Origin: Paraburkholderia sp.
Lineage (GTDB): Bacteria; Pseudomonadota; Gammaproteobacteria; Burkholderiales; Burkholderiaceae
Assembly: GCA_036383775.1 (NCBI GenBank)
Contig: DASVNP010000467.1
Span: forward strand, 5,243-69,242
Direction of reading: 5' to 3'
Length of the DNA stretch: 64,000 nt
Under the pieces are notes generated by a model, which saw only the letters and a list, made by a program, of their open reading frames with translations, ran no database searches and had not been told where the DNA came from. A program made the translations under genes and the position numbers. Within the stretch, counting starts at the first letter, position 1; each line of letters begins with the position of its first letter. Below are positions 26,004 through 47,347 of the stretch, piece after piece.

Positions 26004-27300
26004 ATGGCTACCCTCGAACGCACCGCGTATCCGCGCTTCCCCGAGGTTCTGGCACCCCGCGAACTGCAAGCCTGCTACACGCCGCTGTCCGACGAACTCG
26101 ATGAACGTGAAGCCGTATTACGGCACCGACGCGAACGCGATCGCGACACGGGAGGCGCACACGGCGTCTCTGACGATGGACCAGCCTGTCGACATCATCA
26201 ACGCGACGATCGACGAGCTGATCGGGCAGGATATCGAACTGCCAGCGTCCTCCACGCTCGACCGGTTGACCGAGCAGATTCACGCGCGGGCGCAGTCCCG
26301 ACTCTTCAAGCGCGTCAAGCGACGCCTGACCACTCGCGCTCGACCGGCTGCTGCACGCGATCTGTCGAGCCGGCAGACTGCTTACAAGCGGATAAAGCGG
26401 CATGCGAGACGCCCATCGCGCAAGCACCTGGACCTGCTGGTTGACCAGATCGCCTGGCTCGACGAGATCGGCGATTTTTCACTGGCCGCCGCCGGAATTC
26501 CAGCCTCCAAGCTGCGCTCGCTCGCGAATCAGGCGATGGCGCTCGATGCATCGGCACTCAGGAACGACACACTGCCCGAGAAGCGCTACACATTGATCGT
26601 CGCGCTGCTCAACCGCATGCGCGTGCGCGCCCGGGACGATCTCGCCGAAATGCTTGTACGGCGCATGGGCGACATTCACAAGCGCGCGAGCGACGAGCTG
26701 GACTTGATCCAGCGCAAACAGCGTGATCAGGTCGAGGATCTCGTGGCCGTGCTTGACGGCGTCGCCGACATCCTCGCCGACGAATCCGACGAAACGGCAA
26801 TCGCCAGGGCACCACAGCATGGCGCACGCGGTCTTGAACGGTGCGCCATCGGTGCCGTCGCGACACGAAGGCATTCGTAACTGGAAGGACCTCGTCCTAT
26901 ACCGGTCGGACAGCAAGGCCAAATACAGGCACATCGACAAGCTGTTCACGGCGACCATCGACTGGGTGCTGATTGAGCCGCACTGGCAGGAGTTGATGCA
27001 AGTCGCGCTGTCGATTCAGGCGGGCACGATCTCGTCGCCGCCGGTGCTGCGCCGGCTCGGTTCCGAAAGCCGCAAGAACCGCCTGTGCCTGGCCGCGCGC
27101 GAGCTCGGCAATGTTGTTCGTACGGTGTTCCTGCTCGAGTGGGTCGGCAGCCTCGAATTGCGGCAGGAGGTCACCGCGAACACGAACAAGATCGAGTCGT
27201 ACAATGGCTTCTCCAAATGGCGGTCGTTCGGTGGCGACGTGATCGCCGAGAACGAACCAGATGAGCAGCAGAAACGGCTACGCTACAACGACCTGGTCGC
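26004..27300 (+). pseudogene. tnpA: Tn3-family transposase, frameshifted with large internal deletions
   Basis: MATLERTAYPRF N-terminus, NVKPYYG...DIINATIDEL middle part, and C-terminal IRNWKDL...IDWVLIEPHWQELMQVALSIQAG...NKIESYNGF...EQQKRLRYNDLVA. Confidence 0.88.
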
Positions 27301-27645
27301 TACCATACCGGAGCAGGTGCTGGCTGCGCTCGATCTGATCGACGACTTCATCGCAGAACTGACGCGGGTGAGGACGTTCCTTGAGCCGCTCGAAGCACTG
27401 TCTCTGAACGACGACTGCGGCGACGTCTTAGAGACATCATCTTCAACGGTTCGCCGCGTCGGGCGGCGACCGGCCAAAAACGGTCCTCCATCGCTTCTCG
27501 TAAACGAACGTCTATCGGTCCGTTCTGCTGATATTGCGGTCGTTCGTCCACTCGGCCGCCCGCGTGCCGCCATGCCAAGTCGCGACGCGCGGTTTCAGTT
27601 CTCCAGATTGGTCAAGGTCTCGGGCAGATTTTGCCCGGTCGGCGG

Positions 27646-28470
27646 TCATCGGGCGTGCGCCAGCGCCCGCTCCATGCCAGCAATAGCAGCTTCGACATAT
27701 GCCCTGAAACTGGAGTCCATGGCGGCGTCCGTTCCGTTCTGCCAGCGAACGATAAACGACTTGTTCGCCATCGCCGGGAGGTACCTCGCCAGCGTCGGAA
27801 ACTCAAGCGCCCGGATCGAGTTCACCTTTTCCTGCAGTTGCGCTGCCCATCCCGCGGGGTCGTCCGTCGGCATAGAAGCGAACTCAAGTGTCGAAAATCC
27901 CACCATCGTTGCGATAACAACGTTATACGAGTCGACAATCTGATCATCTTTGAATCCGGCCGCAACAAGCACAGAGAGAATCCTGTCGATCATGCTGGGG
28001 CTCAGGCTTGCGTTGGCGACGAGGTGCCCGCCAAGAAGCGGCGCTACGTTCGGGTGTCGGCGGATCACCTCGCGGCACCGGGAAAACAGTTCCCTGAGCC
28101 AGTCCTGCCACGACAACTTGCCGGGTTCGGGCGCCACGTCGGCCATTGTGGCTTCGACAACCGAAGCGAGCAGGTCGTCACGCGTCGCAACGTGCCAGTA
28201 CACCGCGGACGGATAGACGCCAAGCGATCGCGCCACATCGCGCAAGCTGAATCCCATGAGCCCGTTGCGATCGATCTGCTCAATCGCCGCAGCAACGATT
28301 CTTTCCTTGCTGAGCCCGGAACCGCTCGCCTCGCCTTTCTTTGTGCGCGTGCGCGACGCCGAAGAAGCTCCGCCGGCACGAGCCCGGCCGGTATCTTCGC
28401 CAGTTCCGCGGACCTTCCTGACGCCGCCTGTTTTCTCCACGCGGGTCGCCTTGCGAGCTGATGTCGTCAT
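27646..28470 (-). CDS. TetR family regulator (TetR_C-type)
   Basis: LSKERIVAAAI...FSLRDVARSLGVYPSAVYWHV HTH; divergent from the transaminase operon. Confidence 0.9.
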   Translation of the reverse strand: MTTSARKATRVEKTGGVRKVRGTGEDTGRARAGGASSASRTRTKKGEASGSGLSKERIVAAAIEQIDRNGLMGFSLRDVARSLGVYPSAVYWHVATRDDLLASVVEATMADVAPEPGKLSWQDWLRELFSRCREVIRRHPNVAPLLGGHLVANASLSPSMIDRILSVLVAAGFKDDQIVDSYNVVIATMVGFSTLEFASMPTDDPAGWAAQLQEKVNSIRALEFPTLARYLPAMANKSFIVRWQNGTDAAMDSSFRAYVEAAIAGMERALAHAR

Positions 28471-28599
28471 TTGTCTGTTTGATGTCGAAACGCGATTGTG
28501 CGGTGAACAAGGCGTCATTGTAGACCGGGCAAGCGGCCGAGAGACTTTCGCCGCAGGCGGCTCGCAATCGTCATGCTGCCTTACGCAGTACACAGCAAC

Positions 28600-28627
28600 T
28601 TGCACTTTATCTTGTTCAGTGTACAAT
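28600..28627 (+). promoter_or_regulatory. Promoter with overlapping TetR-type palindrome
   Basis: TTGCAC-N16-TACAAT; palindrome TTGTTCAGTGTACAA (28612-28626) covers the -10 element. Confidence 0.5.
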
Positions 28628-28699
28628 GAATCATAGTTCATCGTTATATGAGTGCGGCTCCGCCAGAGGGCCGCGAAGGCCATGCACAGGGACATCACG

Positions 28700-30016
28700 A
28701 TGGAAAACTCCACTACGTCAGCCTTTCCTAGGCTTGCAGAGGCGATCGATCGCGCGGTCGAGCGTTATACCCAACGCAACCCGCAAAGCGCGCTTCAGTA
28801 CGAGCGGGCCGTTCAGGTCATGCCTGGCGGCAATACGCGGTCGGTGCTCTTTTACGGTCCATTCCCGCTCGCGATCGCTCGCGGTGAGGGTTGCCGTCTC
28901 TGGGATGCGGATGGTCATGAATACATTGACTTCATAGCGGAGTTCACGGCGGGTCTCTATGGGCACTCGAACCCCGTCATCCGGGAGGCCATCGATCGTG
29001 CGCTCGATGCCGGGATCAATTTGAGTGGGCACAACCTGCTGGAGTCTGAGCTTGCGCGTCTGATCTGCAATCGCTTTCCGGCGGTCGATGCGGTGCGATT
29101 CACGAACTCGGGTACCGAAGCGAACCTCATGGCGATCTCGGCTGCACGCGTCCATACCCGCCGTGACAAGGTCATCGTCTTTGCCGGTGGATATCACGGC
29201 GGGGTGCTGACGTTCGCAAGAGGCAACAACCCGGTGAACGTTCCGCACGACCTGTTGATCGCGAACTACAACGATCTGGCGAGCGTGCAGGACCTATTCA
29301 AATCGTATCCTGCCGAGGTGGCAGCCATCATTGTCGAGCCGATGCAGGGAGCCGCGGGTTGTATCTGTGCCGAAAGGGACTTCCTGGCCGGGCTGCGAGA
29401 GCTTGCATCGAATTACGGTGCGGTGCTGATTTTTGACGAAGTCATGACTTCGAGACTGGCGCCCGGTGGGATGCAGGAAGCACTTGGGATCGAGCCGGAC
29501 ATCACGACGCTCGGAAAGTACATTGGGGGCGGGATGTCTTTTGGCGCGTTCGGCGGGCAGGCATCCATCATGGATCAGTTCGATCCGCGCAAGCCTGGCG
29601 CCACGCCGCATGCGGGCACGTTCAATAACAACGTCCTCAGCATGGCGGCCGGCGCAGCAGGTCTATCCAGTCTCTACACCGCGGACGTCGCGCGCGAAAT
29701 GAACGCCAATGGCGATCGGCTTCGCGAGCAACTTAACGCGATTTGCGCGGAGCGCAGCGTCCCTCTCCAGTTCATCGGGAGAGGGTCCCTGATGAATCTT
29801 CAGGCCGGTAGGCACGCAATACGATCGGTGAAAGATCTGCTGCCAGAGGGCAACAGCGTCAAAGATCTCTTTTTCTTTCAGATGGCTGAACACGGCATCT
29901 ATTTGGCCCGCCGTGGCTTCATCGTTTTGAGCATGCCAATTACCGAAAAAGAGATCGGGTGCCTGCTATCGGCCTTCGATACGTTTGTGGAGCGCTACGC
30001 CGGCGTCCTCGCTTGA
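28700..30016 (+). CDS. Class III aminotransferase, beta-phenylalanine transaminase-like
   Basis: MPGGNTRSVLFYGPFPL, DFIAEFTAGLYGHS, GINLSGHNLLE, FDEVMTSRL, LGKYIGGGMSFGAFGG, HAGTFNNN; closely follows the Variovorax/Mesorhizobium beta-transaminase sequences as recalled. Confidence 0.85.
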   Translation: MENSTTSAFPRLAEAIDRAVERYTQRNPQSALQYERAVQVMPGGNTRSVLFYGPFPLAIARGEGCRLWDADGHEYIDFIAEFTAGLYGHSNPVIREAIDRALDAGINLSGHNLLESELARLICNRFPAVDAVRFTNSGTEANLMAISAARVHTRRDKVIVFAGGYHGGVLTFARGNNPVNVPHDLLIANYNDLASVQDLFKSYPAEVAAIIVEPMQGAAGCICAERDFLAGLRELASNYGAVLIFDEVMTSRLAPGGMQEALGIEPDITTLGKYIGGGMSFGAFGGQASIMDQFDPRKPGATPHAGTFNNNVLSMAAGAAGLSSLYTADVAREMNANGDRLREQLNAICAERSVPLQFIGRGSLMNLQAGRHAIRSVKDLLPEGNSVKDLFFFQMAEHGIYLARRGFIVLSMPITEKEIGCLLSAFDTFVERYAGVLA

Positions 30017-30068
30017 AACCAATTGCTGTCGCCGCACAAGGTAGTGCGCATTGAAGAGGAGCATTGAA

Positions 30069-31466
30069 ATGGAAGATACGGCTGGAAAACGTCTCGTAGG
30101 AGACACTTCTCGCGGCGGAAGCGTGATGAGTTTCTACCTTCCGAAGGGCGCGGTGCGTCCGCCGCGTATCGCGCGCGGCGAAGGTGTCCACCTGTACGAC
30201 GAGCTAGGCACCCGCTATCTGGACGCAACGTCGGGCGCAGTTGTGAGCAACCTGGGACACTCCAATCCGCGCGTCGTTGCTGCGATGGCGGAACAGGCTC
30301 ACCGCGTCACCTTTGCGTATCCGCGCTTCTTCGAGAGCGAGCAAAACGTCCGCCTGGCCGGCAAGGTGACTGAACTCGCCGGGGATGGCTTCGACCGCGC
30401 GTTCTTCGTCTCGGGAGGTTCGGAGGCCAACGAAGCAGCACTCAAGCTTGCAAGGCAGTACGCAGTCGCCTGTGGACAGTCGACTCGCTGGAAGGTGATC
30501 TCACGCGACCCGAGCTACCACGGCTCGACCATGGGCGCCATGGCCGTCACGGGCGACTCGTTCACGGAGTCGATCTACGGCCCAATGTTCCAGCCGATGC
30601 CGAAGGTTCCTGCGCCGCTGACTTATCGGCTATCGCCCGGCGTGACGGCCGAAGAGCATGTCGCAGCCTGTGCGGATGCGCTCGAACAGCGAATCGTCGA
30701 GGAGGGGCCCGACACCGTGCTTGCGTTCATTATCGAGCCGATAGGCGGCCTGTCCAGCGGCGCGCTGGTCTCGCCGCCGTCGTACTACCGTCGGGTCCGC
30801 GAGATCTGCGACCGTTACGGCGTGTTGCTGATCCACGACGAGATCATGTGTGGTGCAGGTCGCACGGGCGCTTTCCTGTCCTCGCATCACTGGGAAGGCT
30901 CACGTCCAGACATCGTTACGTTGGCCAAAGGTCTTGCCGCTGGCTATACGCCATTTGGCGCGGTGCTCGCGTCAAACCGGATCGTCGAAACGATTGGCGC
31001 GCACGGCGGTTTTGTCCACGGGCATACCTACTTTTCGAATCCATTCTCCTGTGCTGTTGCTGAAGCCGTTATCGACGAGGTGGTGGAACAAGGGCTTGTC
31101 GAACGGGCTGCGAGGATGGGGCAGTATCTTGATCGAAGACTTTGCGATCTACAGAAGGTGAGCCGCCTGATCGGTGAAGTGCGTGGCAAAGGCTTGCTCA
31201 TGGCGATCGAACTCGTTGCGGACAAAGGGTCCCGACGTCAGCTTTCGCCAGTGATGAATGCGCCTGCCCGTCTGACGAACTACGGACTCGCGCACGGCAT
31301 CGCGCTTTACAACCGGCGTGCTAACCGCGGGCAGTTCGGCGATATCCAGCTGATTGCGCCGCCGCTGATCATCACGGAGCCGGAAATCGATGATCTCGTT
31401 GAACGGCTCGGGCGATCGTTGCTTGATTTCGAACGTGATCTCGAGCGTGAAGGCGCACTTGATTGA
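30069..31466 (+). CDS. Class III (omega) aminotransferase
   Basis: YLDATSGAVVSNLGH, SGGSEANE, SYHGST, DEIMCGAGRTG, TLAKGLAAGY, HGHTY. Confidence 0.92.
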   Translation: MEDTAGKRLVGDTSRGGSVMSFYLPKGAVRPPRIARGEGVHLYDELGTRYLDATSGAVVSNLGHSNPRVVAAMAEQAHRVTFAYPRFFESEQNVRLAGKVTELAGDGFDRAFFVSGGSEANEAALKLARQYAVACGQSTRWKVISRDPSYHGSTMGAMAVTGDSFTESIYGPMFQPMPKVPAPLTYRLSPGVTAEEHVAACADALEQRIVEEGPDTVLAFIIEPIGGLSSGALVSPPSYYRRVREICDRYGVLLIHDEIMCGAGRTGAFLSSHHWEGSRPDIVTLAKGLAAGYTPFGAVLASNRIVETIGAHGGFVHGHTYFSNPFSCAVAEAVIDEVVEQGLVERAARMGQYLDRRLCDLQKVSRLIGEVRGKGLLMAIELVADKGSRRQLSPVMNAPARLTNYGLAHGIALYNRRANRGQFGDIQLIAPPLIITEPEIDDLVERLGRSLLDFERDLEREGALD

Positions 31467-31514
31467 AATGCAACTCGCGCTTTGGCACTAGAGGCGTCGG
31501 ATGGGAAAAGTACC

Positions 31515-31949
31515 ATGAATGTTGCAGGCTTATTCGAATCGCAAAAGCTCGTTCGCTTTCAGCATTGCGACCCGGCAGGCATCGTCTTCTACCCGCAGTA
31601 CTTCGTCCTCTTCCACGAGCTGATCGAGGACTGGTTCAACGATGGACTGCGCGTGAACTACGCGGATTTTATTGCCGTCCGGAAGCTAGGCGTGCCGACG
31701 GTCTGCATGGAAGTGGACTTTTTCGCTTCCAGCAAAATCGGTGACGTGCTGCAAATGCGGCTGGCAGTGAAGCGGATCGGGACACGCTCTATCGTGCTTT
31801 CGCTCGCAGCCTTCGCCGAGGACGTGCTACGCGTACGTGTTCAACAGACGATCGTCCTTTTTTCACTTGAGCGGAGGGCATCCGTCGCCATTCCGGACGA
31901 TCTTCGTCGGCGCCTTTCTTTGTTTTTGACCGAGCAGACCGCGCAATAG
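31515..31949 (+). CDS. 4-hydroxybenzoyl-CoA thioesterase-like hotdog thioesterase
   Basis: VRFQHCDPAGIVFYPQYF motif. Confidence 0.88.
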   Translation: MNVAGLFESQKLVRFQHCDPAGIVFYPQYFVLFHELIEDWFNDGLRVNYADFIAVRKLGVPTVCMEVDFFASSKIGDVLQMRLAVKRIGTRSIVLSLAAFAEDVLRVRVQQTIVLFSLERRASVAIPDDLRRRLSLFLTEQTAQ

Positions 31950-32018
31950 CACAGCTTCTTGTGGCCGAGGCTCGAGTCGCGGTCCCAAAACTATCCAACT
32001 TTTCATGGAGACACAGGC

Positions 32019-32942
32019 ATGGCTACGAACAAGGTTATTGTCCTCGTCGCACCCACCGGAGGGATGGCATTCAAGTCACAGAACCCTCACTTGCCCACGC
32101 AGCCCAACGAGATCGCAAGAGACGTGTACGACTGCTACAACGCCGGTGCGAGCGTTGTGGCTGTGCATGCGCGGCGGCCTGACGACGAGGCGACGTGCAA
32201 TGCCGACATCTATCGCAATATCAACGAGCTGATTCGCGCCAAATGCGACATCGTGATCAACAATTCGACGGGCGGCGGCGTTCATGGCGACATGGTCCGA
32301 CAGATCGACGGCGCGATGTGGGATACCGTCTGGGAAGAGCGCCTCAAGGGCATGGAGGCCGGTGCTGAGATGTGCACGCTGGACGCCTGCACATTCGTGG
32401 CGAGCTTCGGAGGCAAGGAAGTCTTGCTCAATACATCACCCTCGCGATGCCAGTCTCTGGCCGAGGAGATGAGGAAGCGCGGGATCAAGCCCGAGTGGGA
32501 AGTTTTCAGTCCGACACATATCGTTCAGGACGCCACCATGTTGATCCAGATGGGACTTGACGAACCACCGTACGTATTTAACTTGGTGATGAATGCGCAT
32601 CGAGGTTTTCAGAATGCGATGCCATATAACCCGAAGTCATTGCAGTTCATGGTCGATCTGCTGCCCGAAGGCAGCATCTTCTGCGTGAGCGGTATCGGGC
32701 CGGCCCAACTACCCGCGGGCGTCAACTCGTTGCTGCTCGGCGGACAGATCATCCGCGTGGGCCTCGAAGACAATCTTTACTATCGCCAAGGGCAACTCGC
32801 GCGCAACGTCGAACTGGTCGAGCGCACCGTGCGGATTCTGCGTGAAATGGACTACGAAATCGCGACACCCGCTGAAGCGCGCCAGATGATGGGGCTGCCG
32901 CGCAACGATACTTCGGCGAGACCGTACTTTTCGGTAGCGTAG
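32019..32942 (+). CDS. Beta-keto acid cleavage enzyme (BKACE/DUF849, Kce family) 1
   Basis: VAPTGG, AGASVVAVHAR (metal-binding HxH reads AVH), NSTGGG, KPEWEVF, RVGLEDN, IATPAEAR. Confidence 0.9.
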   Translation: MATNKVIVLVAPTGGMAFKSQNPHLPTQPNEIARDVYDCYNAGASVVAVHARRPDDEATCNADIYRNINELIRAKCDIVINNSTGGGVHGDMVRQIDGAMWDTVWEERLKGMEAGAEMCTLDACTFVASFGGKEVLLNTSPSRCQSLAEEMRKRGIKPEWEVFSPTHIVQDATMLIQMGLDEPPYVFNLVMNAHRGFQNAMPYNPKSLQFMVDLLPEGSIFCVSGIGPAQLPAGVNSLLLGGQIIRVGLEDNLYYRQGQLARNVELVERTVRILREMDYEIATPAEARQMMGLPRNDTSARPYFSVA

Positions 32943-34354: not shown

Positions 34355-35284
34355 TTACAGTCGGATCTTGTCTCGGCCTTTGAGGCCAATCATCTGACGC
34401 ACGTCGGTGGGCGTTGCGATTTCGAAGCCGAACCGCGTCAGGATTTCCCGAATCATCTCGACCTGTTCGGCATTCGATGTCGAAAGCCGGCCCGGCCCGT
34501 TCGACAGCGAATCCTCGAGGCCCACGCGGACGTGTCCGCCCATCAAGGCCGCCTGCGTGATGAGCGGCATCTGGTGTCGACCGGCGCCAAGCACCGACCA
34601 TTGATAGGTATCGCCGAACAGCTTGTCCGCGATGCGTTTCATGTGCACGAGATTCTCCGGATCCGCGCCAATCCCACCGAGGACGCCCAGCACGAACTGC
34701 AGGAAAAGCGGCCCCTTGATAATCCCGCGATCGAGGAAGTGCTTCAGGTTGTACAGATGGCCGACGTCGTAGCACTCGAATTCGAAGCGCGTGCCGTGCT
34801 CGTGACCGAGCTGGGTAAACACGTCTTCGATATCGGCGAAGGTATTGCGGAAAATCGTGCGGCGTGTGCCTTCGATTTGGTCGCGCTCCCACTCGTACTT
34901 GAAGGTCTTCAACTTGTCGAGCATCGGAAAGATCCCGAAGTTGAGCGACCCCATGTTGCACGAGGCCATTTCCGGGGAAACGTCGATCGCCCCCGCGAGG
35001 CGTTCGTCGAGCGTCATGTTGTACGAGCCGCCCGTGGTGATGTTGATCACCGCGTCGGTGGCCGCGTGAATCTGCGGCAGGAATTGCCGATAGATCGCCG
35101 GGTCGAATGCGGGCCGTCCATCTCTCGGGTTGCGCGCATGCAGATGCAGGATGGCGGCGCCGGCTTCAGCGGCAGCGATTGACTCACGCGCTATTTCGTC
35201 GGGCGTGATGGGCAGATAAGGCGACATGCTCGGAGTATGGATCGAGCCTGTCACTGCGCAAGTGATGATGACTTTTCGTGCCAC
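34355..35284 (-). CDS. Beta-keto acid cleavage enzyme (BKACE/DUF849) 2
   Basis: ITCAVTGSIH, AAILHLHAR, ITTGG, SCNMGSLNF, FEFECYD, HVRVGLEDS; RBS GGAGGAGGAG. Confidence 0.93.
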   Translation of the reverse strand: MARKVIITCAVTGSIHTPSMSPYLPITPDEIARESIAAAEAGAAILHLHARNPRDGRPAFDPAIYRQFLPQIHAATDAVINITTGGSYNMTLDERLAGAIDVSPEMASCNMGSLNFGIFPMLDKLKTFKYEWERDQIEGTRRTIFRNTFADIEDVFTQLGHEHGTRFEFECYDVGHLYNLKHFLDRGIIKGPLFLQFVLGVLGGIGADPENLVHMKRIADKLFGDTYQWSVLGAGRHQMPLITQAALMGGHVRVGLEDSLSNGPGRLSTSNAEQVEMIREILTRFGFEIATPTDVRQMIGLKGRDKIRL

Positions 35285-37746: not shown

Positions 37747-38583
37747 ATGAGTGAAGACGTAGTCCTAAAGGAAAAGCACGGGTATGTGACCGTGCTTTCC
37801 ATGAACCATCGCCCGTATAACCTTATGAATGCGACGCTGATGGACCCCTTGCTGGCGGCAATGCAAGAGGCGGTCGAGACGGGCAGCCGCGCCATCGTGC
37901 TGAGGAGTAACCTGAGGCACTTCTGCGCGGGGGCGGACGTCACGCAGTTCAGCGCTCTGATGCAGGCGGCCACAGAAGTCGAGGCTGGTGGCGAGGTCGC
38001 GAGTGCTAAGGAGGTGGCGCCCGCTGTCGATGGGCCGCGTGCATTCGCCCCTGTCGACGTACTGCGTGCGTTCGAAACGCTGCCGATCCCTATCGTCACG
38101 AGCATCCACGGTGCCTGTTTGGGTGGGGGCCTCGAACTCGCGCTCGCTTCGGACTATGTCATCGCTGCGCGATCGGCGAAGATCGGTTCGGTCGAAAGTG
38201 CGCTCGGGTTGCATCCGCTGATGGGGGGCATCCAGCGGCAGGTCCAGCGTATCGGCGTGGCGCGTGCGAAGGAGATGTCGATGCTGGGACGCCGCTACGA
38301 CGCCGAAACACTCGAACGATGGGGCCTTATCAATCTGGTCGTCGCGGACGAGCAGCTCGAATCGGCGACCCTCGCCGTGGCTCAGGAGCTTGCAAATGGG
38401 CCGACGGTCGCACACCGGGTGACAAAGCAGATTGTGACCATTGCCGCCAATGAGGGCGTCGAGGCGGCTGATCTGGCGATGGGCGAATTGCAGAAGGCAA
38501 TCTGGGGATCCGCTGATGTAGAGGTCGGGCTCAAGTCCTTCCTGGCGGAAGGCCCCGGCGCAGCCATGTTCAGGGGGTGCTGA
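37747..38583 (+). CDS. Enoyl-CoA hydratase/isomerase
   Basis: FCAGADV, GGGLELALASD, VESALGLHP. Confidence 0.9.
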   Translation: MSEDVVLKEKHGYVTVLSMNHRPYNLMNATLMDPLLAAMQEAVETGSRAIVLRSNLRHFCAGADVTQFSALMQAATEVEAGGEVASAKEVAPAVDGPRAFAPVDVLRAFETLPIPIVTSIHGACLGGGLELALASDYVIAARSAKIGSVESALGLHPLMGGIQRQVQRIGVARAKEMSMLGRRYDAETLERWGLINLVVADEQLESATLAVAQELANGPTVAHRVTKQIVTIAANEGVEAADLAMGELQKAIWGSADVEVGLKSFLAEGPGAAMFRGC

Positions 38584-38585
38584 TT

Positions 38586-39872
38586 ATGGCTGGACCACTG
38601 CAAGGCCTGAAGGTCGTTGATCTTTCTCGAGTGTTGGCGGGTCCGCTGTGTGCTCGCACGCTGGCGGACCTGGGTGCGGAGGTGATCAAGGTCGAGCCGC
38701 CGCGGCCGGATGTCTCTCGCTTTGCCTTCCCCAATACGGATGGCATGTCCGGCTACTACGCGCAGCAGAATGTCGGCAAGCGCAATGTCAGCATCGATCT
38801 GAATGTGGCAGGCGCGCGGGAACTGGTCCTCAAGCTCTGCAAGGATGCGGACATCTTTGTCGAGAACTTCCGCGCGGGCACACTCAAGTTCTTCGGACTT
38901 GACTACGAAGAACTTTCGAAGATCAACCCGAGGCTGATCTATGTGTCGATCTCGGGCTATGGCCAAGGGGGGCCTTGGGCTTCGCGCATGGCCTATGCAC
39001 CCACGGTTCAGGCGGAGGCCGGGTTCACCCACAACACGCTGCGTCATTACGGCGGCGCGCTTTCCAAGCTGAGATCTGATCCGTTGTCGCATGCCGATGT
39101 TTATGCCGGCCTCCAGGCTGCAGTTGCCGTGCTGGCAGCGGTGCACCGGCGCCAGACCACCGGACGCGGCCAGTACATTGACGTTGCTATGGCTGCCGTC
39201 ATCATGGCGATCAACGAGCGCGCGCATGTGGACATTGCCGGCATCGATACGGGCGCGGAACCCGCCATCATTGGTGCCGCCGACGGCTCGTTCTTCGTTG
39301 GCCCTCACGGCGAGCGCATTCTCACACCTGCAAGCCTGGTGGGCAGCCTGACCTTCCCGTCATATCTGCACGCCATGCGGCGCCCTGATCTGGCAAGCGA
39401 TCCGCGTTTTGCCACGGCAGCACTACGCGCTCAGAACGTCGACGCTCTTCATGGGATTGTCCAGACGTGGATGCTGACGTTTCGCGATATGGCAGCACTC
39501 GACGCCCAACTCGACGAGTCCAAGATCGCGATTGGGGAGATTCGCAGCATGCAAGAAGTGGCGCAGACGGAATGGGCCGAGTACTGGGGCGCCGTGCTGA
39601 ACGTGCCGGACAGGTTCGGAGGCACCTATCAGCTGCACGGACGCCCCTGGCGGTTCTCCGAAGACACGCTGGATGCACCGTCCGCCCCTGCATTCCGAGG
39701 CGAGCATAACGCCGAGGTGTTCGCTGAGCTCGGCATGAGCGCGTCGGAGATCAGCGCTTTGATTGAGGCGCAAGCGCTGGTCGAGCACCCACGCCAGAGT
39801 CCGCCCTTGGTTGGTTCGGCGTCGGACGCGACGCCGGCAGCCGAAGCGGATTCTGGCCCAGTCACTGCATAG
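38586..39872 (+). CDS. Family III CoA-transferase (CaiB/BaiF)
   Basis: PLQGLKVVDLSRVLAGP...LADLGAEVIKVEPP, ADIFVENFRAG, INPRLIYVSISGYG. Confidence 0.92.
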   Translation: MAGPLQGLKVVDLSRVLAGPLCARTLADLGAEVIKVEPPRPDVSRFAFPNTDGMSGYYAQQNVGKRNVSIDLNVAGARELVLKLCKDADIFVENFRAGTLKFFGLDYEELSKINPRLIYVSISGYGQGGPWASRMAYAPTVQAEAGFTHNTLRHYGGALSKLRSDPLSHADVYAGLQAAVAVLAAVHRRQTTGRGQYIDVAMAAVIMAINERAHVDIAGIDTGAEPAIIGAADGSFFVGPHGERILTPASLVGSLTFPSYLHAMRRPDLASDPRFATAALRAQNVDALHGIVQTWMLTFRDMAALDAQLDESKIAIGEIRSMQEVAQTEWAEYWGAVLNVPDRFGGTYQLHGRPWRFSEDTLDAPSAPAFRGEHNAEVFAELGMSASEISALIEAQALVEHPRQSPPLVGSASDATPAAEADSGPVTA

Positions 39873-39890
39873 CGTGCAAGAGGTGTCATC

Positions 39891-41213
39891 ATGAGCGAAG
39901 CGATCGACCATACTCACGACCCGCGTGCACGCAGTTGGGTGCAGAGCGCCAATTCACCGAATACAGAATTTCCGATCCAGAATTTGCCGCTCGGCGTCTT
40001 CGAGCACGATCAGTCGCCGAACGGCCGGATCGGAGTAGCTATCGGTGATCAAGTTCTCGACATCGCCGCCGCCCTGGACAAAGGTTTGCTGCCTGAGTTG
40101 GCGGAGTTCGACGCCGAGTTGCATATGTCCGCGCTCAATGCGCTGATGACGCACGGCCGGCGGGCAGCCCGTGCACTGCGCCACGCCGTGTTCGGAATGT
40201 TGCAGGAGGACAGTGAACACGAGGCCCTAGCCTCGAAGTGTCTGCTGCCCATGCGCGAGGTGAGAATGCAGGTGCCGGCGAACATCGGCGACTTCACGGA
40301 TTTTTTCACCTCGATCCACCATGCACGTCGCACCGGCGAGCTATCGCGACCCGATATGCCGGTGGCAGCGAACTTCAGACATATGCCTATCGGCTATCAC
40401 GGGCGCGCGTCGAGCGTGGTCCAAAGCGGTGTGTCGTGCATACGGCCCCGCGGGCAGGCGGCACCGTCTTCCGTCGCGGCGGTAGCGGCGCAGGAATACA
40501 TGCCCACGCGGGCGCTCGACTTTGAGCTTGAAGTGGGTTGCCTGATCGGGAAGGGCAACGCGCTGGGATCGACAATTCCGATCGATGAGGCCGAGGACCA
40601 TATGTTCGGGCTCTGTCTGGTCAATGACTGGTCGGCGCGCGATATCCAAGGCTGGGAAAGCTATCCCTTAGGTCCGTTCCTCGCCAAGAGTTTCATGACC
40701 ACTGTGTCGCCGTGGTTGGTCACGCTGGAGGCGCTGGCTCCGTTCCGGGTGGCCGCGCCCGCTCGGGCCCCAGAGGATCCGCCTTCGCCACCGGCCCTCA
40801 CATCGGCGAAGCATGCGGCAGTAGGAGCCATCTCAATCTCGCTTGAGGTTCTTCTGCAGACAGCCGTCATGCAGGAACAAGGTCTGGAGCCCGTGGTCCT
40901 GACCCGCCCGCAGTTCAACGAGCAGTACTGGACGCTTACGCAGATGCTCACGCATCACGCCAGCAATGGATGCAACTTGCGTACGGGGGATTTGCTGTCC
41001 AGTGGAACGGTCTCCGGTGTGGAACGTGAGAACAGCGGATGCATGGTGGAACTCACCACGTTAGGTAAGGAACCATTGCGCCTGCCGTCGGGAGAAACAC
41101 GTCCCTTCCTGGAAGACGGCGACGTCGTATGGCTGCGCGGCGTCTGCCACCGGGACGGCTACCAGTCCATCGGATTCGGCGAATGCACGGCTCAGATCAA
41201 GGGGGGGAGATGA
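39891..41213 (+). CDS. fahA: Fumarylacetoacetase
   Basis: FPIQNLPLG, GDFTDFFTSIHHA, GYHGRASS, LDFELE, NDWSARDIQGWESYPLGPF. Confidence 0.92.
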   Translation: MSEAIDHTHDPRARSWVQSANSPNTEFPIQNLPLGVFEHDQSPNGRIGVAIGDQVLDIAAALDKGLLPELAEFDAELHMSALNALMTHGRRAARALRHAVFGMLQEDSEHEALASKCLLPMREVRMQVPANIGDFTDFFTSIHHARRTGELSRPDMPVAANFRHMPIGYHGRASSVVQSGVSCIRPRGQAAPSSVAAVAAQEYMPTRALDFELEVGCLIGKGNALGSTIPIDEAEDHMFGLCLVNDWSARDIQGWESYPLGPFLAKSFMTTVSPWLVTLEALAPFRVAAPARAPEDPPSPPALTSAKHAAVGAISISLEVLLQTAVMQEQGLEPVVLTRPQFNEQYWTLTQMLTHHASNGCNLRTGDLLSSGTVSGVERENSGCMVELTTLGKEPLRLPSGETRPFLEDGDVVWLRGVCHRDGYQSIGFGECTAQIKGGR

Positions 41214-41719
41214 CGCGACAACAAGTCACCATCACGGTCAACGGAGCCCCGGTGAACGCGGTTATCGAACCGCGGGAGCTGCTCGTGCATTTCCTGCGAG
41301 ACCACGCAGGCATGACGGGAACCCACATCGGGTGCGACACGTCGCAATGCGGCGCCTGCACCGTTCGGATGGACGGGAAGACGGTCAAGTCATGCACGGT
41401 CCTGGCGGTGCAGGCGCAGACGCACAGCGTAACGACCATTGAAGGTCTGGGCACGCCGAAGAACATGACGCCGCTACAGCAGGCCTTCACGGAAATGCAT
41501 GGTCTGCAATGCGGCTTCTGCACGCCGGGCATGATCTTCGCCGCGCAGGCGCTGCTGGATCGGGTCGCAAACCCGACCGAAGCGCAAGTACGCGAAGCTT
41601 TGCACGGCAATCTGTGCCGCTGCACCGGGTATAAGAACATCGTGGATGCGGTCCTGCTAGCTGCAAGCCGTGCGAATCAGGCGGCCGACGACGCCAGCAG
41701 ACCGAAGGAGAACGCGTAA
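41210..41719 (+). CDS. Molybdenum hydroxylase small (2Fe-2S) subunit, CoxS-like
   Basis: GCDTSQCGACTV, QCGFCTPG, NLCRCTGY; ATGA overlap with the upstream stop. Confidence 0.95.
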   Translation: MTRQQVTITVNGAPVNAVIEPRELLVHFLRDHAGMTGTHIGCDTSQCGACTVRMDGKTVKSCTVLAVQAQTHSVTTIEGLGTPKNMTPLQQAFTEMHGLQCGFCTPGMIFAAQALLDRVANPTEAQVREALHGNLCRCTGYKNIVDAVLLAASRANQAADDASRPKENA

Positions 41720-44106
41720 TGAGCATGCTCGATCACGCAGCGTCTTCGCGCCTCGTTGGGCAATCTATCACTCGCCGCGAAGACCCGCGCCTGCTAACTG
41801 GCCGTGGACGGTACACCGATGACATCGCGATCGAGGGGCTTACCTGCGCCATGGTACTGCGCTCGCCCCATGGTCACGCACTGATCGAATCTATCGATAC
41901 ATCGGCGGCATTGGCCATGGAAGGGGTGGTGGGCATCCTGACCTACGAAGACCTGCGCGGCAAGGTCGGCGACATCCGTCCCAACTGGGTCGTGAGCGGC
42001 GCCAAGGTGCCCCCTCATCCCCCACTGGCCGATGGACGTGTGCGTTATGTCGGCGAAGCGGTCGCGCTTGTGGTGGCCCATACACGCCAGCAAGCGGCGG
42101 ATGCACTCGAAGCTATCATTGTCGACTACGACGTACTGTCGGCCGTTGTCGATGAGGAGGCTGCCCTCCAGGAAGGCGCACCGCAATTGCACGACAACGT
42201 GCCCGGCAACCTCATCGGAATATACCGCGGCGGCGGCGGTGACTACGAGGCAGCAGCGGAACAGGCCGATCAGCTGGTCAAGGTGCGGCTGGTCAACAAC
42301 CGGCTGATTCCGAGTCCCATCGAGCCTCGCGCGGTGCGCGCGGTATTTGACGAGAACGACGACAGGCTCACTATCTACCTGCCGTCACAGGTTCCGCACA
42401 TGTCCAGGCGCTGGTTGGCTGAAACCCTGGGCTGGCCCGAACACAAAATTCATCTTATTGCGCCGGACATTGGTGGCGGGTTCGGGTCCAAGATGCACTT
42501 GTACGCCGAGGAGATCCTCGTCGCGTTCGCTGCGAGACACTTCGGGCGACCCGTGGGCTGGACCGAGACGCGCAGCGAGGCGCACACTGCCACCACGCAC
42601 GGTCGCGCACACATCGAGTACGTGGAAGCAGCGGTCAGAAAGGATGGCCGCGTGCTCGGCATCAAGATGCGCTCGTTGGCCAATCTGGGTGCGTATCTGT
42701 CCAACATGGCGACCGGCATCCCGACCATCAATACGGTTTCGTTCGCCTGCGGCAACTATGACATCGCCGCGCTCGATGGAGAGATGCGGCTCGTGACGAC
42801 CAACACTACGCCGGTGGATGCCTACCGAGGCGCTGGTCGGCCGGAAGCCACGTATCTCATCGAAAGAACGATGGACGCAGTCGCTGCCGAGCTGGGTATG
42901 GATCCGGTCGAACTGCGCCGGATCAACCTGATTCGAAAACATCAGTTTCCCTACCATCCTTACGAGAGCCCTGTCTTTACCTGGGACACCGGCAATTACG
43001 AGGGCTGCCTCGAGGCTGCTGTGGAGGCAATTGGCTACAGCGAATGGCGCGAGCGACAGGCCGCGTTGCGGGCGCAGGGGCGCTATGTCGGCATCGCCGT
43101 GACTTGCTATCTGGAAATGGTGGGCGTCGGCAATTCAGTTCCGCTCAAGTGGGTCGGATTTGATCGCGGCGGATGGGAAAGCGCGCTGTTGCGCGTCCAT
43201 TCCGATGGGAAGGTGACACTTTTCACGGGCTCCATGCCACAAGGACACGGGCACGCCACTGTCTACGCACAGATCGTCGGTGATGCGCTGCAGTTGCCCA
43301 TGGACCACATCGACGTCGTTTTCGGCGACACGGACAGAGTCCCGGCTGGGCATGGCACGTTTAACTCGAGGTCCATACCTGTTGGCGGCTCGGCTGCGCA
43401 TATGGCGGCTAAGAAAGTGCTGACCAAGGCAACCGCAATCGCGGCTGCGATGCTGGGCACGACACCCGAAGAGGTGAGTCACGCCTCGGAAGCCTTCTTC
43501 GTGAGTGGGCACCCCGAGCGGCGAGTCAGCTTCGGCGAGGTTGCGCGGATGGCATACGTGAGCTCCGAACTGCCGCTTGGCATGGAGCCCGGACTGGAGG
43601 AAACAGTGTTCTTTCAGCCCGAAGATGGCGTTACAACGTTCGGCAGTCACGCTGCGGTAGTCGAGGTGGACATCGAAACAGGGTTGGTGAGCGTTCTCGA
43701 TTATGTAGCAGTTGACGACATCGGAAATGTCATCAACCCCATGCTTGTCGACGGGCAAGTTCACGGCGGAGTCGCGCAGGGAATCGGCCAGGCCTTGTAT
43801 GAAGGCGCCGAATACGATGAAAACGGGCAACTCCTCACTGGTTCGCTGCTCGATTACGCGGTGCCGAAGAGCGAACAGATCCCACGCGTGCGTACGAGCT
43901 TCCAGGTGACGCCTACCCCGATAAATCCGCTTGGCGCCAAGGGCATCGGCGAAGCCGGCTGTGTCGGTGCGCCGCCGGTCATCGTTGGAGCCGTTTGCGA
44001 TGCGCTTAGCAGCTTTGGCATCACCCATATCGACATGCCGTTGACGCCGCCCAAAGTGTGGCGCGCTATCAGTGCTGCACAAGTCGACAAAAGGAGCCCA
44101 GCATGA
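41719..44106 (+). CDS. Molybdenum hydroxylase large subunit (xanthine dehydrogenase family, CoxL form II-like)
   Basis: REDPRLLTGRGRYTDD, GGGFGSK, AYRGAGRPEA, QGHGHAT, GQVHGGVAQGIG, KGIGEAG. Confidence 0.95.
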   Translation: MSMLDHAASSRLVGQSITRREDPRLLTGRGRYTDDIAIEGLTCAMVLRSPHGHALIESIDTSAALAMEGVVGILTYEDLRGKVGDIRPNWVVSGAKVPPHPPLADGRVRYVGEAVALVVAHTRQQAADALEAIIVDYDVLSAVVDEEAALQEGAPQLHDNVPGNLIGIYRGGGGDYEAAAEQADQLVKVRLVNNRLIPSPIEPRAVRAVFDENDDRLTIYLPSQVPHMSRRWLAETLGWPEHKIHLIAPDIGGGFGSKMHLYAEEILVAFAARHFGRPVGWTETRSEAHTATTHGRAHIEYVEAAVRKDGRVLGIKMRSLANLGAYLSNMATGIPTINTVSFACGNYDIAALDGEMRLVTTNTTPVDAYRGAGRPEATYLIERTMDAVAAELGMDPVELRRINLIRKHQFPYHPYESPVFTWDTGNYEGCLEAAVEAIGYSEWRERQAALRAQGRYVGIAVTCYLEMVGVGNSVPLKWVGFDRGGWESALLRVHSDGKVTLFTGSMPQGHGHATVYAQIVGDALQLPMDHIDVVFGDTDRVPAGHGTFNSRSIPVGGSAAHMAAKKVLTKATAIAAAMLGTTPEEVSHASEAFFVSGHPERRVSFGEVARMAYVSSELPLGMEPGLEETVFFQPEDGVTTFGSHAAVVEVDIETGLVSVLDYVAVDDIGNVINPMLVDGQVHGGVAQGIGQALYEGAEYDENGQLLTGSLLDYAVPKSEQIPRVRTSFQVTPTPINPLGAKGIGEAGCVGAPPVIVGAVCDALSSFGITHIDMPLTPPKVWRAISAAQVDKRSPA

Positions 44107-44969
44107 TTCCGCGCGCATTCGAGTATGTACGGCCCGACAGCTTGTCAGAGGCTATTCGCCTGCTCGTCGGCGGGGGCGAGGAGGCGAAGTTGCTGAGCGG
44201 AGGCCATTCGCTGCTCCCGATGATGAAGCTGCGCCTGGCGAGTCCAGGCACGCTGATCGACGTGAGCGAACTAGCGGACCTTCGGGGCATCACCATCGAC
44301 GCGAACGAGGTCGTCATTGGCGCTGCGACCACGCATGCCGAGCTTGAACACCACGTCGAGCTGAACAGAGTGTTGCCGATGTTTGCGACTGTCGGCCACC
44401 AGATTGCGGACCCGACGGTGCGCAATCGCGGCACCCTGGGTGGCTCGTTAGCGCACGCGGATCCTTCGGCCGATTGGCCGGCTGCGATGCTGGCCCTCGA
44501 AGCGAAGCTCGACGTCATCGGAGCGAAGGGCGCGCGTTCGATTGCTGCAGATTCGTTCTTCAAGGGGCTCTTCGAGACAGATCTGGAACCCGACGAGATC
44601 ATCGTACGTGTGCGTGTTCCGGTGGTGGTGGACCGGCGTGTGGCCTATCGCAAGTTCCGCCATCCGGCCTCGGGCTACGCCGTCGCCGGCGTGGCCGTTG
44701 TCCTCGCTCAACAGGCCGGTCAATGTACCGGTGGACGAATCGCGGTGACAGGCTTTGCCGATCACGCCTACCGTGCAAAACACGCCGAAGAGGCGCTGGC
44801 AGGATACGCCGGCCAACCGGCGCAGACGGAGCATTTGCTGGATCTGGCGTTTTCCGGGGTCATCCCGTTGGAGGACCGCTTCGCCGATGCCAACTACCGC
44901 ATCCAACTCGGCCGAACGTTGCTTCGGCGCGCGCTGGCTGATGCGATGTCGACGGACGGTTGTCATTGA
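44103..44969 (+). CDS. Molybdenum hydroxylase FAD subunit, CoxM-like
   Basis: LSGGHSLLPMMKLR, VRNRGTLGGSLAHADP, HPASGYA. Confidence 0.95.
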   Translation: MIPRAFEYVRPDSLSEAIRLLVGGGEEAKLLSGGHSLLPMMKLRLASPGTLIDVSELADLRGITIDANEVVIGAATTHAELEHHVELNRVLPMFATVGHQIADPTVRNRGTLGGSLAHADPSADWPAAMLALEAKLDVIGAKGARSIAADSFFKGLFETDLEPDEIIVRVRVPVVVDRRVAYRKFRHPASGYAVAGVAVVLAQQAGQCTGGRIAVTGFADHAYRAKHAEEALAGYAGQPAQTEHLLDLAFSGVIPLEDRFADANYRIQLGRTLLRRALADAMSTDGCH

Positions 44970-45216
44970 TTCGCGGTCGGAGCGCAACATGAGTCAACTA
45001 GCTGGCAATTTGCTCGAACTGTTGCGCCTTGGCGCGAATAAGCCGGGGGCTCTTATCGAACACTTGTTGTGCGAACTTGCGTTGAATCTCATTGCGCCGG
45101 GCTGTGCTGCCGTGCCGGCGCTCGATGTCTAGCCTGACCACGCAATGCATTTTAGCAAGTGATATCCGTGTCGAAGTCGCGGGCCTGACCGAACGGAAAT
45201 ATGCCGGAGAGATTGA

Positions 45217-46377
45217 ATGGAACTCGTTGGAAAAAGACTGATTCCCGCGCCGATTGCCACCACTTGGGAGGCATTGAACGACCCCGACGTGCTCAAGTCG
45301 TGCATTGCGGGATGCGAGTCGCTGGAATTGGTGCAGCCTGGCACGCTGATGGCCGTACTGGCGGCGCGGGTAGGGCCGGTCGCCGCGCGCTTCAAGGGAA
45401 CGGTGACATTGAGCAATGTGCAGGCGCCGCGCAGCTATATGTTGTCCTTCGAAGGGCAGGGCGGGATCGCCGGTTTTGGCAAAGGGTCGGCAGACGTTTC
45501 GCTGACGGAACAGGGGGATCAGACGTTGCTGAGTTACTCGTCTCGAGTCCAGGTGGGAGGTCGGTTGGCTCAGGTCGGTTCCCGCTTGATCAATGCGGCC
45601 GCGTCGAAGATCACGGAGGATTTCTTCTCGGCGTTTGAAGCCCGGTTGGGGCCGGCCACGGCCGAATCGGCCACTCCTGAGGTCGCCACCCGCAGCGACA
45701 CCGACGTGCCGACGATATCTCGCCTTGTCGCTACTACTGCACCGAAGCACAGTCGGAGCTTGCCGTCGGTTGCCGAGCTGAGATCGCAACCGAAGCCGAC
45801 CAAGGCGGTAGCGAACGAGCCACACATGCTCCCCAAGACCGAGGCGGCTCCAGCGAAACTGAGTCATGTCGGTGCTGGCACGTCGATCAAGCTTATCGGA
45901 GAAAGACTGGTTGCGGCGCCGATATTGGCAACCTTCAACGCACTGGCTAATCACGAGGTGCTCAAGGTGTGCATTCCAGGAATCCAGTCGCTGGATCAGG
46001 TGCGGCAGGATAGGCAGGTGCTAGTCCTGGCGCCGATGGGGCCGTTGGGTCCGCGATTCAGGAGCAGCCTTCGAGTGCATAACGTCCATGTACCGATGAG
46101 CTTCATGGTGTCGTTCGTCGGAGAGCGTGGGTCAACGGGGTTGGTCAAGGTCTCGCTGATCGAGGAGGGAAGGCAGACGCGCGTGTGCTACGACCTGCAG
46201 GCACAGATACACGGTTTCGTTGGCAAGGCTGGACCGCGGGTACTCGAGTTCATTGGCTCGCAGATCGGCAAACAATTTTTTTCGGCGCTCGATGCCCGGT
46301 TTCACGCGTCGATAGCCCGGATGGCAGCGGATGCGGGTCGCGGTAAGCACCGATCGAGGGCAAAGCGAGGGTTGTAG
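45217..46377 (+). CDS. CoxG/SRPBCC protein with two tandem domains
   Basis: WEALNDPDVLKSCIAGCE in domain 1 and FNALANHEVLKVCIPGIQ in domain 2, joined by a Pro/Ala/Thr-rich linker. Confidence 0.85.
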   Translation: MELVGKRLIPAPIATTWEALNDPDVLKSCIAGCESLELVQPGTLMAVLAARVGPVAARFKGTVTLSNVQAPRSYMLSFEGQGGIAGFGKGSADVSLTEQGDQTLLSYSSRVQVGGRLAQVGSRLINAAASKITEDFFSAFEARLGPATAESATPEVATRSDTDVPTISRLVATTAPKHSRSLPSVAELRSQPKPTKAVANEPHMLPKTEAAPAKLSHVGAGTSIKLIGERLVAAPILATFNALANHEVLKVCIPGIQSLDQVRQDRQVLVLAPMGPLGPRFRSSLRVHNVHVPMSFMVSFVGERGSTGLVKVSLIEEGRQTRVCYDLQAQIHGFVGKAGPRVLEFIGSQIGKQFFSALDARFHASIARMAADAGRGKHRSRAKRGL

Positions 46378-46550
46378 GCTGCGGTCCGTCCCCGCGTCCG
46401 CTGAGCCGCATGACGATCGATAAATTGGACCGGCTGCGCAGGCCGGCCTTCATCTACATCGGCAATCGCACGACTCGCCGCAGATCTCGTAGGTTTTGAG
46501 AAACACGTGTTGCACGTAGCCACTATATAAATGAAAGGAGACGGAGACAA

Positions 46551-47276
46551 ATGATAAAAGGAAGCCAAACAACCACTGCCCTGGCCATAGGGTTATCAAT
46601 TGCTTTTACGTGCTCGGGCGTGCGAGCTGACGAATCTGCAAACGCACAAGTCGACGAACCCGCAAACACGGTGAAGATGGGATATGTCGGCGTCTTATTT
46701 AACACCAACTCCGGCTACTTATCCGGTCCGCCGGGCAGCACACCCCCCGGTATTCAGATCGACGTGAAGAATACAAGCATTCTGGGGTTGAGCTATCAGA
46801 GAAATCTGTCCGACCACTGGTCGGTCCTCTTTCAGGCGGGAAGTCCTGTCGCCGTACGTAGCGAAGGAGCCGGCAATGCAGCCGGTGTAGGGGCGCTCAC
46901 AACAGCCAAGGCGTGGTTCCCGGCCCTTATGCTTGACTACACCTTCACGGACTTCCATGGCATTCGGCCTTACATGGGTCTTGGTGTGAACTACACCTTC
47001 TTCACGAATCAAAAGGTCAATGCCACCTACACGAACGCGTTCCAGGGGACTCAAACTTCGATAAAGATGAAAGATTCCTGGGGTCCCGTCGCGCGACTAG
47101 GCGTCGAGTATCTGGTTAACAAGCATTGGGTCGTCGATTTTTCCTATTTGCACTACTGGGTGAGAACGACACTCACGCTCACCACGGCGACACCCGGATT
47201 CGGCAATGTCACCCGGACCATCGGAGTCAAGATCAACCCCGATCTGCTCGGTCTGGTGGTTGGGTATCGCTTCTGA
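46551..47276 (+). CDS. OmpW/AlkL family outer membrane protein
   Basis: Signal peptide, IRPYMGLGVNYTFF, KDSWGPV, C-terminal NPDLLGLVVGYRF. Confidence 0.9.
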   Translation: MIKGSQTTTALAIGLSIAFTCSGVRADESANAQVDEPANTVKMGYVGVLFNTNSGYLSGPPGSTPPGIQIDVKNTSILGLSYQRNLSDHWSVLFQAGSPVAVRSEGAGNAAGVGALTTAKAWFPALMLDYTFTDFHGIRPYMGLGVNYTFFTNQKVNATYTNAFQGTQTSIKMKDSWGPVARLGVEYLVNKHWVVDFSYLHYWVRTTLTLTTATPGFGNVTRTIGVKINPDLLGLVVGYRF

Positions 47277-47347
47277 CGACGCGTCCGCGTTCACTCAAGC
47301 TGGACCACTGCATAACTGAAATCTATTCAATCAAAGTAATGCTTACC

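Follow-up and report, generated by a model that had tools for sequence, protein, structure and literature searches.

A TetR-linked operon of Paraburkholderia with a predicted route for beta-aryl amino acids and a candidate (R)-selective transaminase

How might a soil bacterium make use of both enantiomers of an aromatic beta-amino acid? The question is raised by a five-gene locus in a stretch of 64,000 nucleotides of Paraburkholderia sp. (assembly GCA_036383775.1, contig DASVNP010000467.1, positions 5,243 to 69,242), hereafter the window, in which a TetR-family repressor gene lies divergent from the genes for two class III transaminases, a thioesterase and a BKACE-fold enzyme. (R)-beta-tyrosine is a defence metabolite of maize with 98% enantiomeric excess (PMC13586772) and yew makes (R)-beta-phenylalanine (PMC6150868), so that a route for such compounds could matter in the root zone. 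In Paraburkholderia BS115 and PsJN, (S)-beta-phenylalanine is transaminated and the benzoylacetate formed decays to acetophenone in cultures, in line with the instability assumed in an earlier reading of this DNA (the original prediction), and BS115 also uses (R)-beta-phenylalanine, only when the (S) enantiomer is present and by an unknown route (PMC6150868). That study does not identify the genes behind the use of beta-phenylalanine, states that a transaminase converting the (R) enantiomer was unreported as of 2018 and leaves the bacterial use of this enantiomer open.

The second transaminase of the locus (TA2) is a testable gene for this activity, and its candidacy as the orphan (R)-beta-phenylalanine transaminase is the newest and most valuable point of the present analysis. 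For the scheme as a whole, in which the TetR-linked operon degrades beta-phenylalanine or beta-tyrosine in both enantiomeric forms, the balance tips slightly in favour. A wider proposal is made tentatively, with slightly more doubt than confidence: that TA2 represents the first family of natural transaminases with (R) selectivity for beta-aryl amino acids, on a fold-type I scaffold whose usual product is the (S) form, and that with an aroylacetate cleavage clade having a two-ligand zinc site it completes an undescribed regulon by which root-zone bacteria use plant (R)-beta-tyrosine and (R)-beta-phenylalanine as nitrogen and carbon source. If true, such a wild-type enzyme with (R) selectivity would be a counterpart to the (S)-selective transaminases employed in making chiral beta-amino acids. 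No description of a natural (R)-beta-phenylalanine transaminase was found in the literature searched, which excluded most subscription journals and all patents.

The case for TA2 lies in its gene neighbourhoods. In one related locus (L008) 2 nt separate TA2 from the preceding gene, which matches the N-acetyl-(R)-beta-phenylalanine acylase (PDB 8HUY, 8I59, 8I5A) over its full length (8HUY, E 0, 1521 bits), and the gene order is acylase, TA2, major facilitator superfamily (MFS) transporter, porin, thioesterase and BKACE; another (L011) carries tetR, TA2, thioesterase and BKACE. Both genomes are devoid of a VpAT-like gene, their best match to the first transaminase of the window (hereafter the beta-transaminase) being 35-36%. 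Among 213 genomes of the genus, acylase orthologues 76-100% identical to the L008 gene are directly followed by TA2 in six of six cases, the genomes being kin and the cases therefore not six independent events, and six of the nine TA2 genes in this sample have the acylase as a neighbour. Since TA2 adjoins the acylase in all six and occurs in two genomes without a VpAT-like gene, it likely deaminates the (R) enantiomer, and the simplest reading is that it is likely to act on what the (R)-acylase releases. The original prediction had recorded the presence of a second transaminase and given it no role; the context now ties it to an (R)-specific acylase.

A broader survey was performed on 33 TA2 loci (at least 55% identity, at least 2.5 kb of flank on each side, out of 73 counted; several are near-duplicates). 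Within 8 kb of TA2, a DMFase-family acylase was found in 21, a beta-transaminase in 13, the BKACE clade in nine and none of these in one. The window TA2 clusters with acylase-linked TA2s in a quick tree (Shimodaira-Hasegawa-like approximate likelihood ratio test 99), in three separate parts of which the 8HUY-type acylase flanks TA2. A second DMFase-family type (755-790 amino acids), about 25% identical to the 8HUY type, flanks TA2 in Comamonadaceae-like loci, often with an acetoacetate-CoA-ligase-family gene next and in one case with the BKACE clade. In a Comamonadaceae-like sample of 401 genomes TA2 occurs in eight, of which five adjoin an acylase, two lie in a beta-transaminase operon and one in neither setting; five Variovorax/Xenophilus genomes with the BKACE clade have no TA2 (0/5). 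In the loci L007/L217 and L017/L218, an (R)-acylase-TA2 arm and an amidase-beta-transaminase arm flank shared BKACE genes. Two loci carry the second DMFase type beside TA2, followed by a PEP-mutase-family or acetoacetate-CoA-ligase-family gene (L172:9380-13931, L188:3208-12351), and these genes are likely to represent other routes of keto acid cleavage. A distant pair, beta-transaminase (50-52%) and TA2 (56-57%), surrounds a polyamine-type ABC transporter together with SIS and SDR genes (L228:1352-9192, L229).

The TA2 protein itself belongs to an uncharacterised clade. Its best solved-structure match is 3i4j (E 5e-83), the pyridoxal phosphate (PLP) residues K287, D257 and T320 and G116-G117-S118 of the GG-S motif are invariant (57/57), as are R86, R416 and R417, and none of the 25 NCBIfam matches shown reaches its cut-off, the best being PRK07483 (440 against 485). 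Ala57-Val58 stand where omega-transaminases such as 6gwi have Leu-Trp, which, on pocket roles that we assume, fits a roomier small pocket and does not fix the stereochemistry. A PbfA-like ammonia-lyase role was rejected for TA2 (score 257 against a cut-off of 525; beta-phenylalanine has no leaving group); such a role on a hydroxylated substrate is possible.

The class III fold and the best matches place the beta-transaminase in the aromatic beta-amino-acid group of VpAT from Variovorax paradoxus (4ao9), MesAT (2yku) and VboTA (PMC9850050). VpAT is its best solved relative, glutamate-semialdehyde aminomutases matching at E 1e-70 or weaker. The carboxylate and the ring of aromatic beta-amino acids are reported to be bound in VpAT by R41, V43, E75 and Y76 (PMC9850050), with which R47, V49, E81 and F82 align (three of four identical, Tyr to Phe being conservative), the mapping being based on the 4ao9 alignment with a 20-residue tag offset deduced from the chain length. 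These enzymes have been described as single biocatalysts, and the literature search turned up neither a regulon nor a pathway downstream of them. The genes that accompany the beta-transaminase in relatives encode a porin, an MFS transporter, an amidase and a PTER-like hydrolase, of which the last two are plausibly N-acyl hydrolases of the (S) side.

Table 1. Predicted features of the five-gene locus, with positions in the window
Feature	Position	Strand	Remarks
TetR-family repressor	27646-28470	-	PF00440 and PF02909; divergent from the enzyme genes; start codon uncertain, open frame continues further upstream
Second operator copy, one mismatch (predicted)	28496-28510		A short way upstream of the probable tetR start; may serve autoregulation
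TetR operator (predicted), 15-bp palindrome TTGTWC-N3-GWACAA	28612-28626		Kept in related intergenic regions
VpAT-like class III beta-amino-acid transaminase, predicted (S)-beta-Phe/beta-Tyr selective	28700-30016	+	4ao9, E 9e-150
TA2, second class III PLP transaminase, clade uncharacterised	30069-31466	+	PF00202; candidate (R)-beta-Phe/beta-Tyr transaminase
4HBT-type hot-dog fold thioesterase, predicted aroyl-CoA thioesterase	31515-31949	+	PF13279/PF03061
BKACE-fold enzyme, predicted aroylacetate:acetyl-CoA cleavage	32019-32942	+	PF05853, E 1e-79; clade with Ala at first zinc His

All five genes are intact open reading frames with profile and structure matches, so that the arrangement described in the original prediction is confirmed, and the enzyme genes are separated from one another by 52, 48 and 69 nt. 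The operator proposed between tetR and the beta-transaminase gene is likewise borne out at the level of sequence as a palindrome conserved in relatives, and it is the sole exact match in the 8.2-Mb assembly; no further copies, and thus no wider regulon, were seen elsewhere in it. The window holds two copies of the pattern against 0.21 expected, a number reached in 4 of 100 shuffles; since the search pattern was derived from the proposed site itself, the real evidence is its conservation in relatives, where the DNA around it is not conserved. The operator was present in 30 of the 211 loci searched, all 30 being loci of this system, and copies in relatives precede transaminase, porin, PTE-like hydrolase and BKACE genes. 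A search of the 213 genomes with the DNA motif only gave single matches at chance level and some clusters of three operators; among the matches listed, all seven such clusters are beta-transaminase regulons with BKACE (four repeat earlier loci), and their BKACEs fall into two sub-lineages of 90-92% and 71-72% identity. Paired operator-like sites in L237 and L238 were set aside, the loci being unrelated. The TetR copies of ten related loci are 68-90% identical. A co-induced operon with two transaminases would explain why BS115 uses the (R) enantiomer only when the (S) enantiomer is present.

The thioesterase matches 3ck1 (E 2e-23) and the 4HBT enzyme 1bvq (E 1e-5), and it has the hot-dog profile of 4HBT type I with D19 aligned to D17 of 1bvq, which we take to be catalytic. 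The BKACE gene product has the closest structures 3c6c and Kce (2y7d); its model (pLDDT 89) has the TIM-barrel fold and TM scores of 0.80-0.84 to Kce, 3c6c and 8rip. In Kce numbering the canonical zinc ligands are presumably His46, His48 and Glu230, and the other active-site residues Ser82, Thr106, Asn108, Glu143, Arg226 and Asp231. The corresponding Ser83, Thr120, Asp122 (for Asn), Glu161, Arg246 and Asp251 are invariant in 30 of 30 aligned sequences, as are His50 and Glu250, and at the zinc site (Ala48, His50, Glu250) one of the three ligands is lost, as it is in plasmid homologues of 54-69% identity. The protein shares the fold and the catalytic Glu, Arg and Asp with the BKACE family (Kce; BKACE15, 8rip; the G3 subgroup acting on benzoylacetate) but is only about 30% identical and has Ala in place of His46, Asp in place of Asn108 and Met in place of Glu14; it falls under every NCBIfam cut-off. 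By the family's own rule (NetSyn section 14) the missing His counts against membership, and the enzyme, which likely works like a BKACE, is not called canonical here. The original assignment thus stands for the fold and most catalytic residues, and its chemistry is less certain than was assumed. Benzoylacetate and 4-hydroxybenzoylacetate are listed BKACE substrates (PMC4922564, Table S2), in agreement with the original prediction, which counted aromatic beta-keto acids among the reported substrates of the family.

The neighbours of this large clade with an altered metal site repeatedly indicate aroylacetates. Its 79 GTDB loci were drawn from the best 80 of 585 confirmed, and in 25 of them the clade lies beside a BzdR/BoxR-type regulator, with an enoyl-CoA hydratase, a carnitine-dehydrogenase-like gene and an acyl-CoA synthetase. 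On plasmid pBAR1 of Sphingomonas bisphenolicum (L208:8558-15327), thioesterase, BKACE (60%), biotin carboxylase subunits and a HAD phosphatase lie near pobA in a set resembling that of acetovanillone carboxylase, and the cluster may encode a route for 4-hydroxyacetophenone in this degrader of bisphenol; nothing usable on it turned up among the bisphenol papers listed. In Dactylosporangium (L070:1494-8918), genes for an acyl-CoA ligase and acetophenone-carboxylase-like hydantoinase A/B lie directly 5' of the clade gene. These gene contexts support an aroylacetate substrate and a CoA-ester product.

Other settings of the clade and of the thioesterase were also observed. The regulator-linked loci, common in Pandoraea (L020, L023, L025-L029 and others), hold BzdR/BoxR-type regulator, enoyl-CoA hydratase, carnitine-dehydrogenase-like gene, BKACE, binding protein and acyl-CoA synthetase, and are possibly an undescribed side-chain shortening route for phenylpropanoids. 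An Agrobacterium plasmid (L210:683-11129) carries a molybdenum hydroxylase, BKACE (54%), thioesterase and a cyclase-family gene, which may form a heteroaromatic ring-opening route. A paralogue from the same Ala clade (64%) lies in an operon of Crp, MFS, BKACE and carnitine-dehydrogenase-like genes with an SDR gene (L146; G000:C437:31518-33384); the Crp-MFS-BKACE operon is conserved in several other genomes and could cover 3-hydroxy-3-arylpropionates. The window thioesterase is only about 26% identical to the BKACE-adjacent thioesterases of pBAR1 and pAt1D1609a, and in Paraburkholderia franconis (L001:7462-8214) the thioesterase frame, matching over 131 residues only, continues into the BKACE, possibly by a frameshift.

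The expected co-occurrence of the genes in other genomes is upheld in a modular form. Five-gene sets recur in Paraburkholderia and Trinickia, the nearest named relatives being P. franconis and Trinickia (BKACE 94-97%), and are partly rearranged and not obligatory: the five-gene order is kept in four of the 79 loci and all five genes occur rearranged in one more, with the beta-transaminase in nine, TA2 in eight and the thioesterase in 13. Trinickia symbiotica JPY-366 is one strain that has the five-gene order. In a family sample the beta-transaminase occurs in 9 of 297 genomes. One unpublished genome, G217, is counted in several tallies (it is one of 37 matches in the family sample), and no claim depends on it. 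The transaminase pair is read as a nitrogen-scavenging core, to which thioesterase and BKACE form an optional carbon-capture module.

From these parts a route may be drawn that is probably right in outline. The beta-transaminase very likely converts (S)-beta-phenylalanine and a 2-oxo acid to benzoylacetate, as its strong homology suggests, and TA2, judged by gene context, is somewhat more likely than not to perform the same reaction on (R)-beta-phenylalanine, the shared product being (hydroxy)benzoylacetate. The BKACE would then, with good probability on family chemistry and context, convert benzoylacetate and acetyl-CoA to benzoyl-CoA and acetoacetate in competition with the spontaneous loss of benzoylacetate as acetophenone, and the thioesterase would, with similar probability on homology and a lignin-pathway precedent (VceB, below), release benzoate and CoA, so that (hydroxy)benzoyl-CoA ends as the free acid. 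Benzoate or 4-hydroxybenzoate would enter BenA or PobA, benzoyl-CoA could pass directly to BoxB and acetoacetate could be reactivated by a 3-oxoacid CoA-transferase. Elsewhere in the assembly BenA, BoxB and the ScoB/PcaJ family score above their cut-offs, PobA reaches 535.8 against 538.7 and acetoacetate-CoA ligase is under its cut-off. In relatives, N-acyl hydrolases and transporters would feed the same enzymes.

Several observations weigh against the scheme. BS115 lysate with 2-oxoglutarate had no (R)-transaminase activity (PMC6150868). Among the 213 genomes, 14 remoter acylase homologues (42-64%) have no adjoining TA2, and for some homologues of TA2 the neighbour is instead gamma-glutamyltranspeptidase or malonyl-CoA decarboxylase. 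Of eight other genomes with the beta-transaminase, four have BKACE nearby and four show no member of the clade; one further relative with TA2 also shows none, the transaminase pair occurs without BKACE in L154 and three metagenome loci (one near-identical group), and the 71-72% BKACE sub-lineage has its own operator and no thioesterase beside it. At the position of Kce His46, 30 of 30 aligned sequences and 119 of 120 homologues have Ala (Ala48 in the window), and in a family screen (NetSyn section 14) members of the BKACE family without one of the catalytic residues had no activity. No transporter lies at the locus, the N-acyl hydrolases and transporters of relatives being absent from the window copy, and a search of the own assembly (84% complete) yielded no gene of the acylase family, the control likewise matching nowhere. 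For an internal source of beta-phenylalanine, five matches to MIO enzymes were found in the assembly, of which the three full-length ones score well under the cut-offs for aminomutases; the top scores of its MIO enzymes are those for histidine or other ammonia-lyases.

Among the alternatives, the one that survives best, though improbable, is that the chemistry is the same and the natural substrate is another beta-amino acid, either alpha-hydroxylated (of the 3-phenylisoserine type) or aliphatic, with beta-phenylalanine as a side substrate. VpAT-like enzymes deaminate (S)-beta-phenylalanine and aliphatic beta-amino acids too (PMC9850050). In two loci (L017:26-8921, L050:228-8921), genes for an FMN alpha-hydroxy-acid dehydrogenase, a ketopantoate-reductase-like protein and an enolase-superfamily protein lie between TA2 and BKACE, and the 8HUY-type acylase was, we presume, named from its screening substrate. 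These extra genes are absent from the window, however, the remaining settings of the BKACE clade indicate aryl products and the thioesterase is 4HBT-like. In L017, L050 and L218 the (R)-acylase and TA2 precede the three extra genes, an order that suggests an alpha-hydroxy-beta-amino acid such as phenylisoserine.

It is less probable still that the BKACE-fold protein with its lost zinc His is a hydrolase or decarboxylase of aroylacetate or its CoA ester, independent of acetyl-CoA. The Ala at the His46 position throughout the clade would fit this, cis-epoxysuccinate hydrolase has the same fold, and one group of the BKACE family decarboxylates while another is without BKACE activity (PMC4922564). 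However, invariance extends to His50, Ser83, Thr120, Glu161, Arg246, Glu250 and Asp251, among which are the Glu and Arg put forward as catalytic (PMC11961710), and the recurrent association with thioesterases and a benzoyl-CoA-type regulator points to a CoA ester as product. Least probable is that TA2 is a beta-aryl amino acid racemase or a helper that regenerates the amino acceptor used by the first transaminase. In favour of this, epimerases occur within class III, 5wya is among the TA2 matches and a beta-transaminase lies near TA2 in 13 of 33 loci (the distant pair at 56-57% included); against it, TA2 with acylase, thioesterase and BKACE in a genome without a VpAT-like gene would leave a racemase or helper partnerless unless an unrelated (S)-enzyme exists.

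The system is built from known chemistry and parts, with one testable orphan enzyme, TA2. Among the closest described systems is VceA/VceB of Sphingobium lignivorans SYK-6, in which acetyl-CoA-dependent conversion of vanilloylacetate to an aroyl-CoA is followed by a thioesterase (10.1101/2022.04.28.489975, 10.64898/2026.08.18.745639, 10.1101/2024.03.22.586352, PMC11575180). VceA/VceB is fed by lignin ether or acetovanillone breakdown, not by amino acids, and is not essential in SYK-6. Other papers (PMC6449761, PMC12712682, PMC10589169) served as background only. In the homology comparison no named match to VceA appeared among the best 120 of the window BKACE. VceA is taken here to be a BKACE. 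Thus the novelty claimed in the original prediction holds for the complete pathway, of which the same literature search gave no description, and less so for its cleavage and thioesterase half. The predicted route likewise keeps the support of homology, regulon structure and the other BKACE settings; it had left out a role for TA2 and the VceA/VceB precedent, and it is weakened by the lost zinc ligand and by the four of eight beta-transaminase relatives in which the BKACE clade was not found.

A scan of the window for sigma-70 promoters and terminators gave no signal above chance. To the left of tetR (26004-27325) lies a broken Tn3-family transposase with DUF4158 and DDE pieces. A second, unrelated BKACE (34355-35284, minus strand), which shares 29% identity with the first and retains both canonical His, exceeds the NCBIfam cut-off for 3,5-dioxohexanoate:acetyl-CoA acetone transferase and lies behind an alpha/beta hydrolase and an NmrA-like gene. 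A further catabolic cluster (37747-48532) encodes enoyl-CoA hydratase, family III CoA-transferase, fumarylacetoacetase-like protein, molybdenum hydroxylase, CoxG and thiolase.

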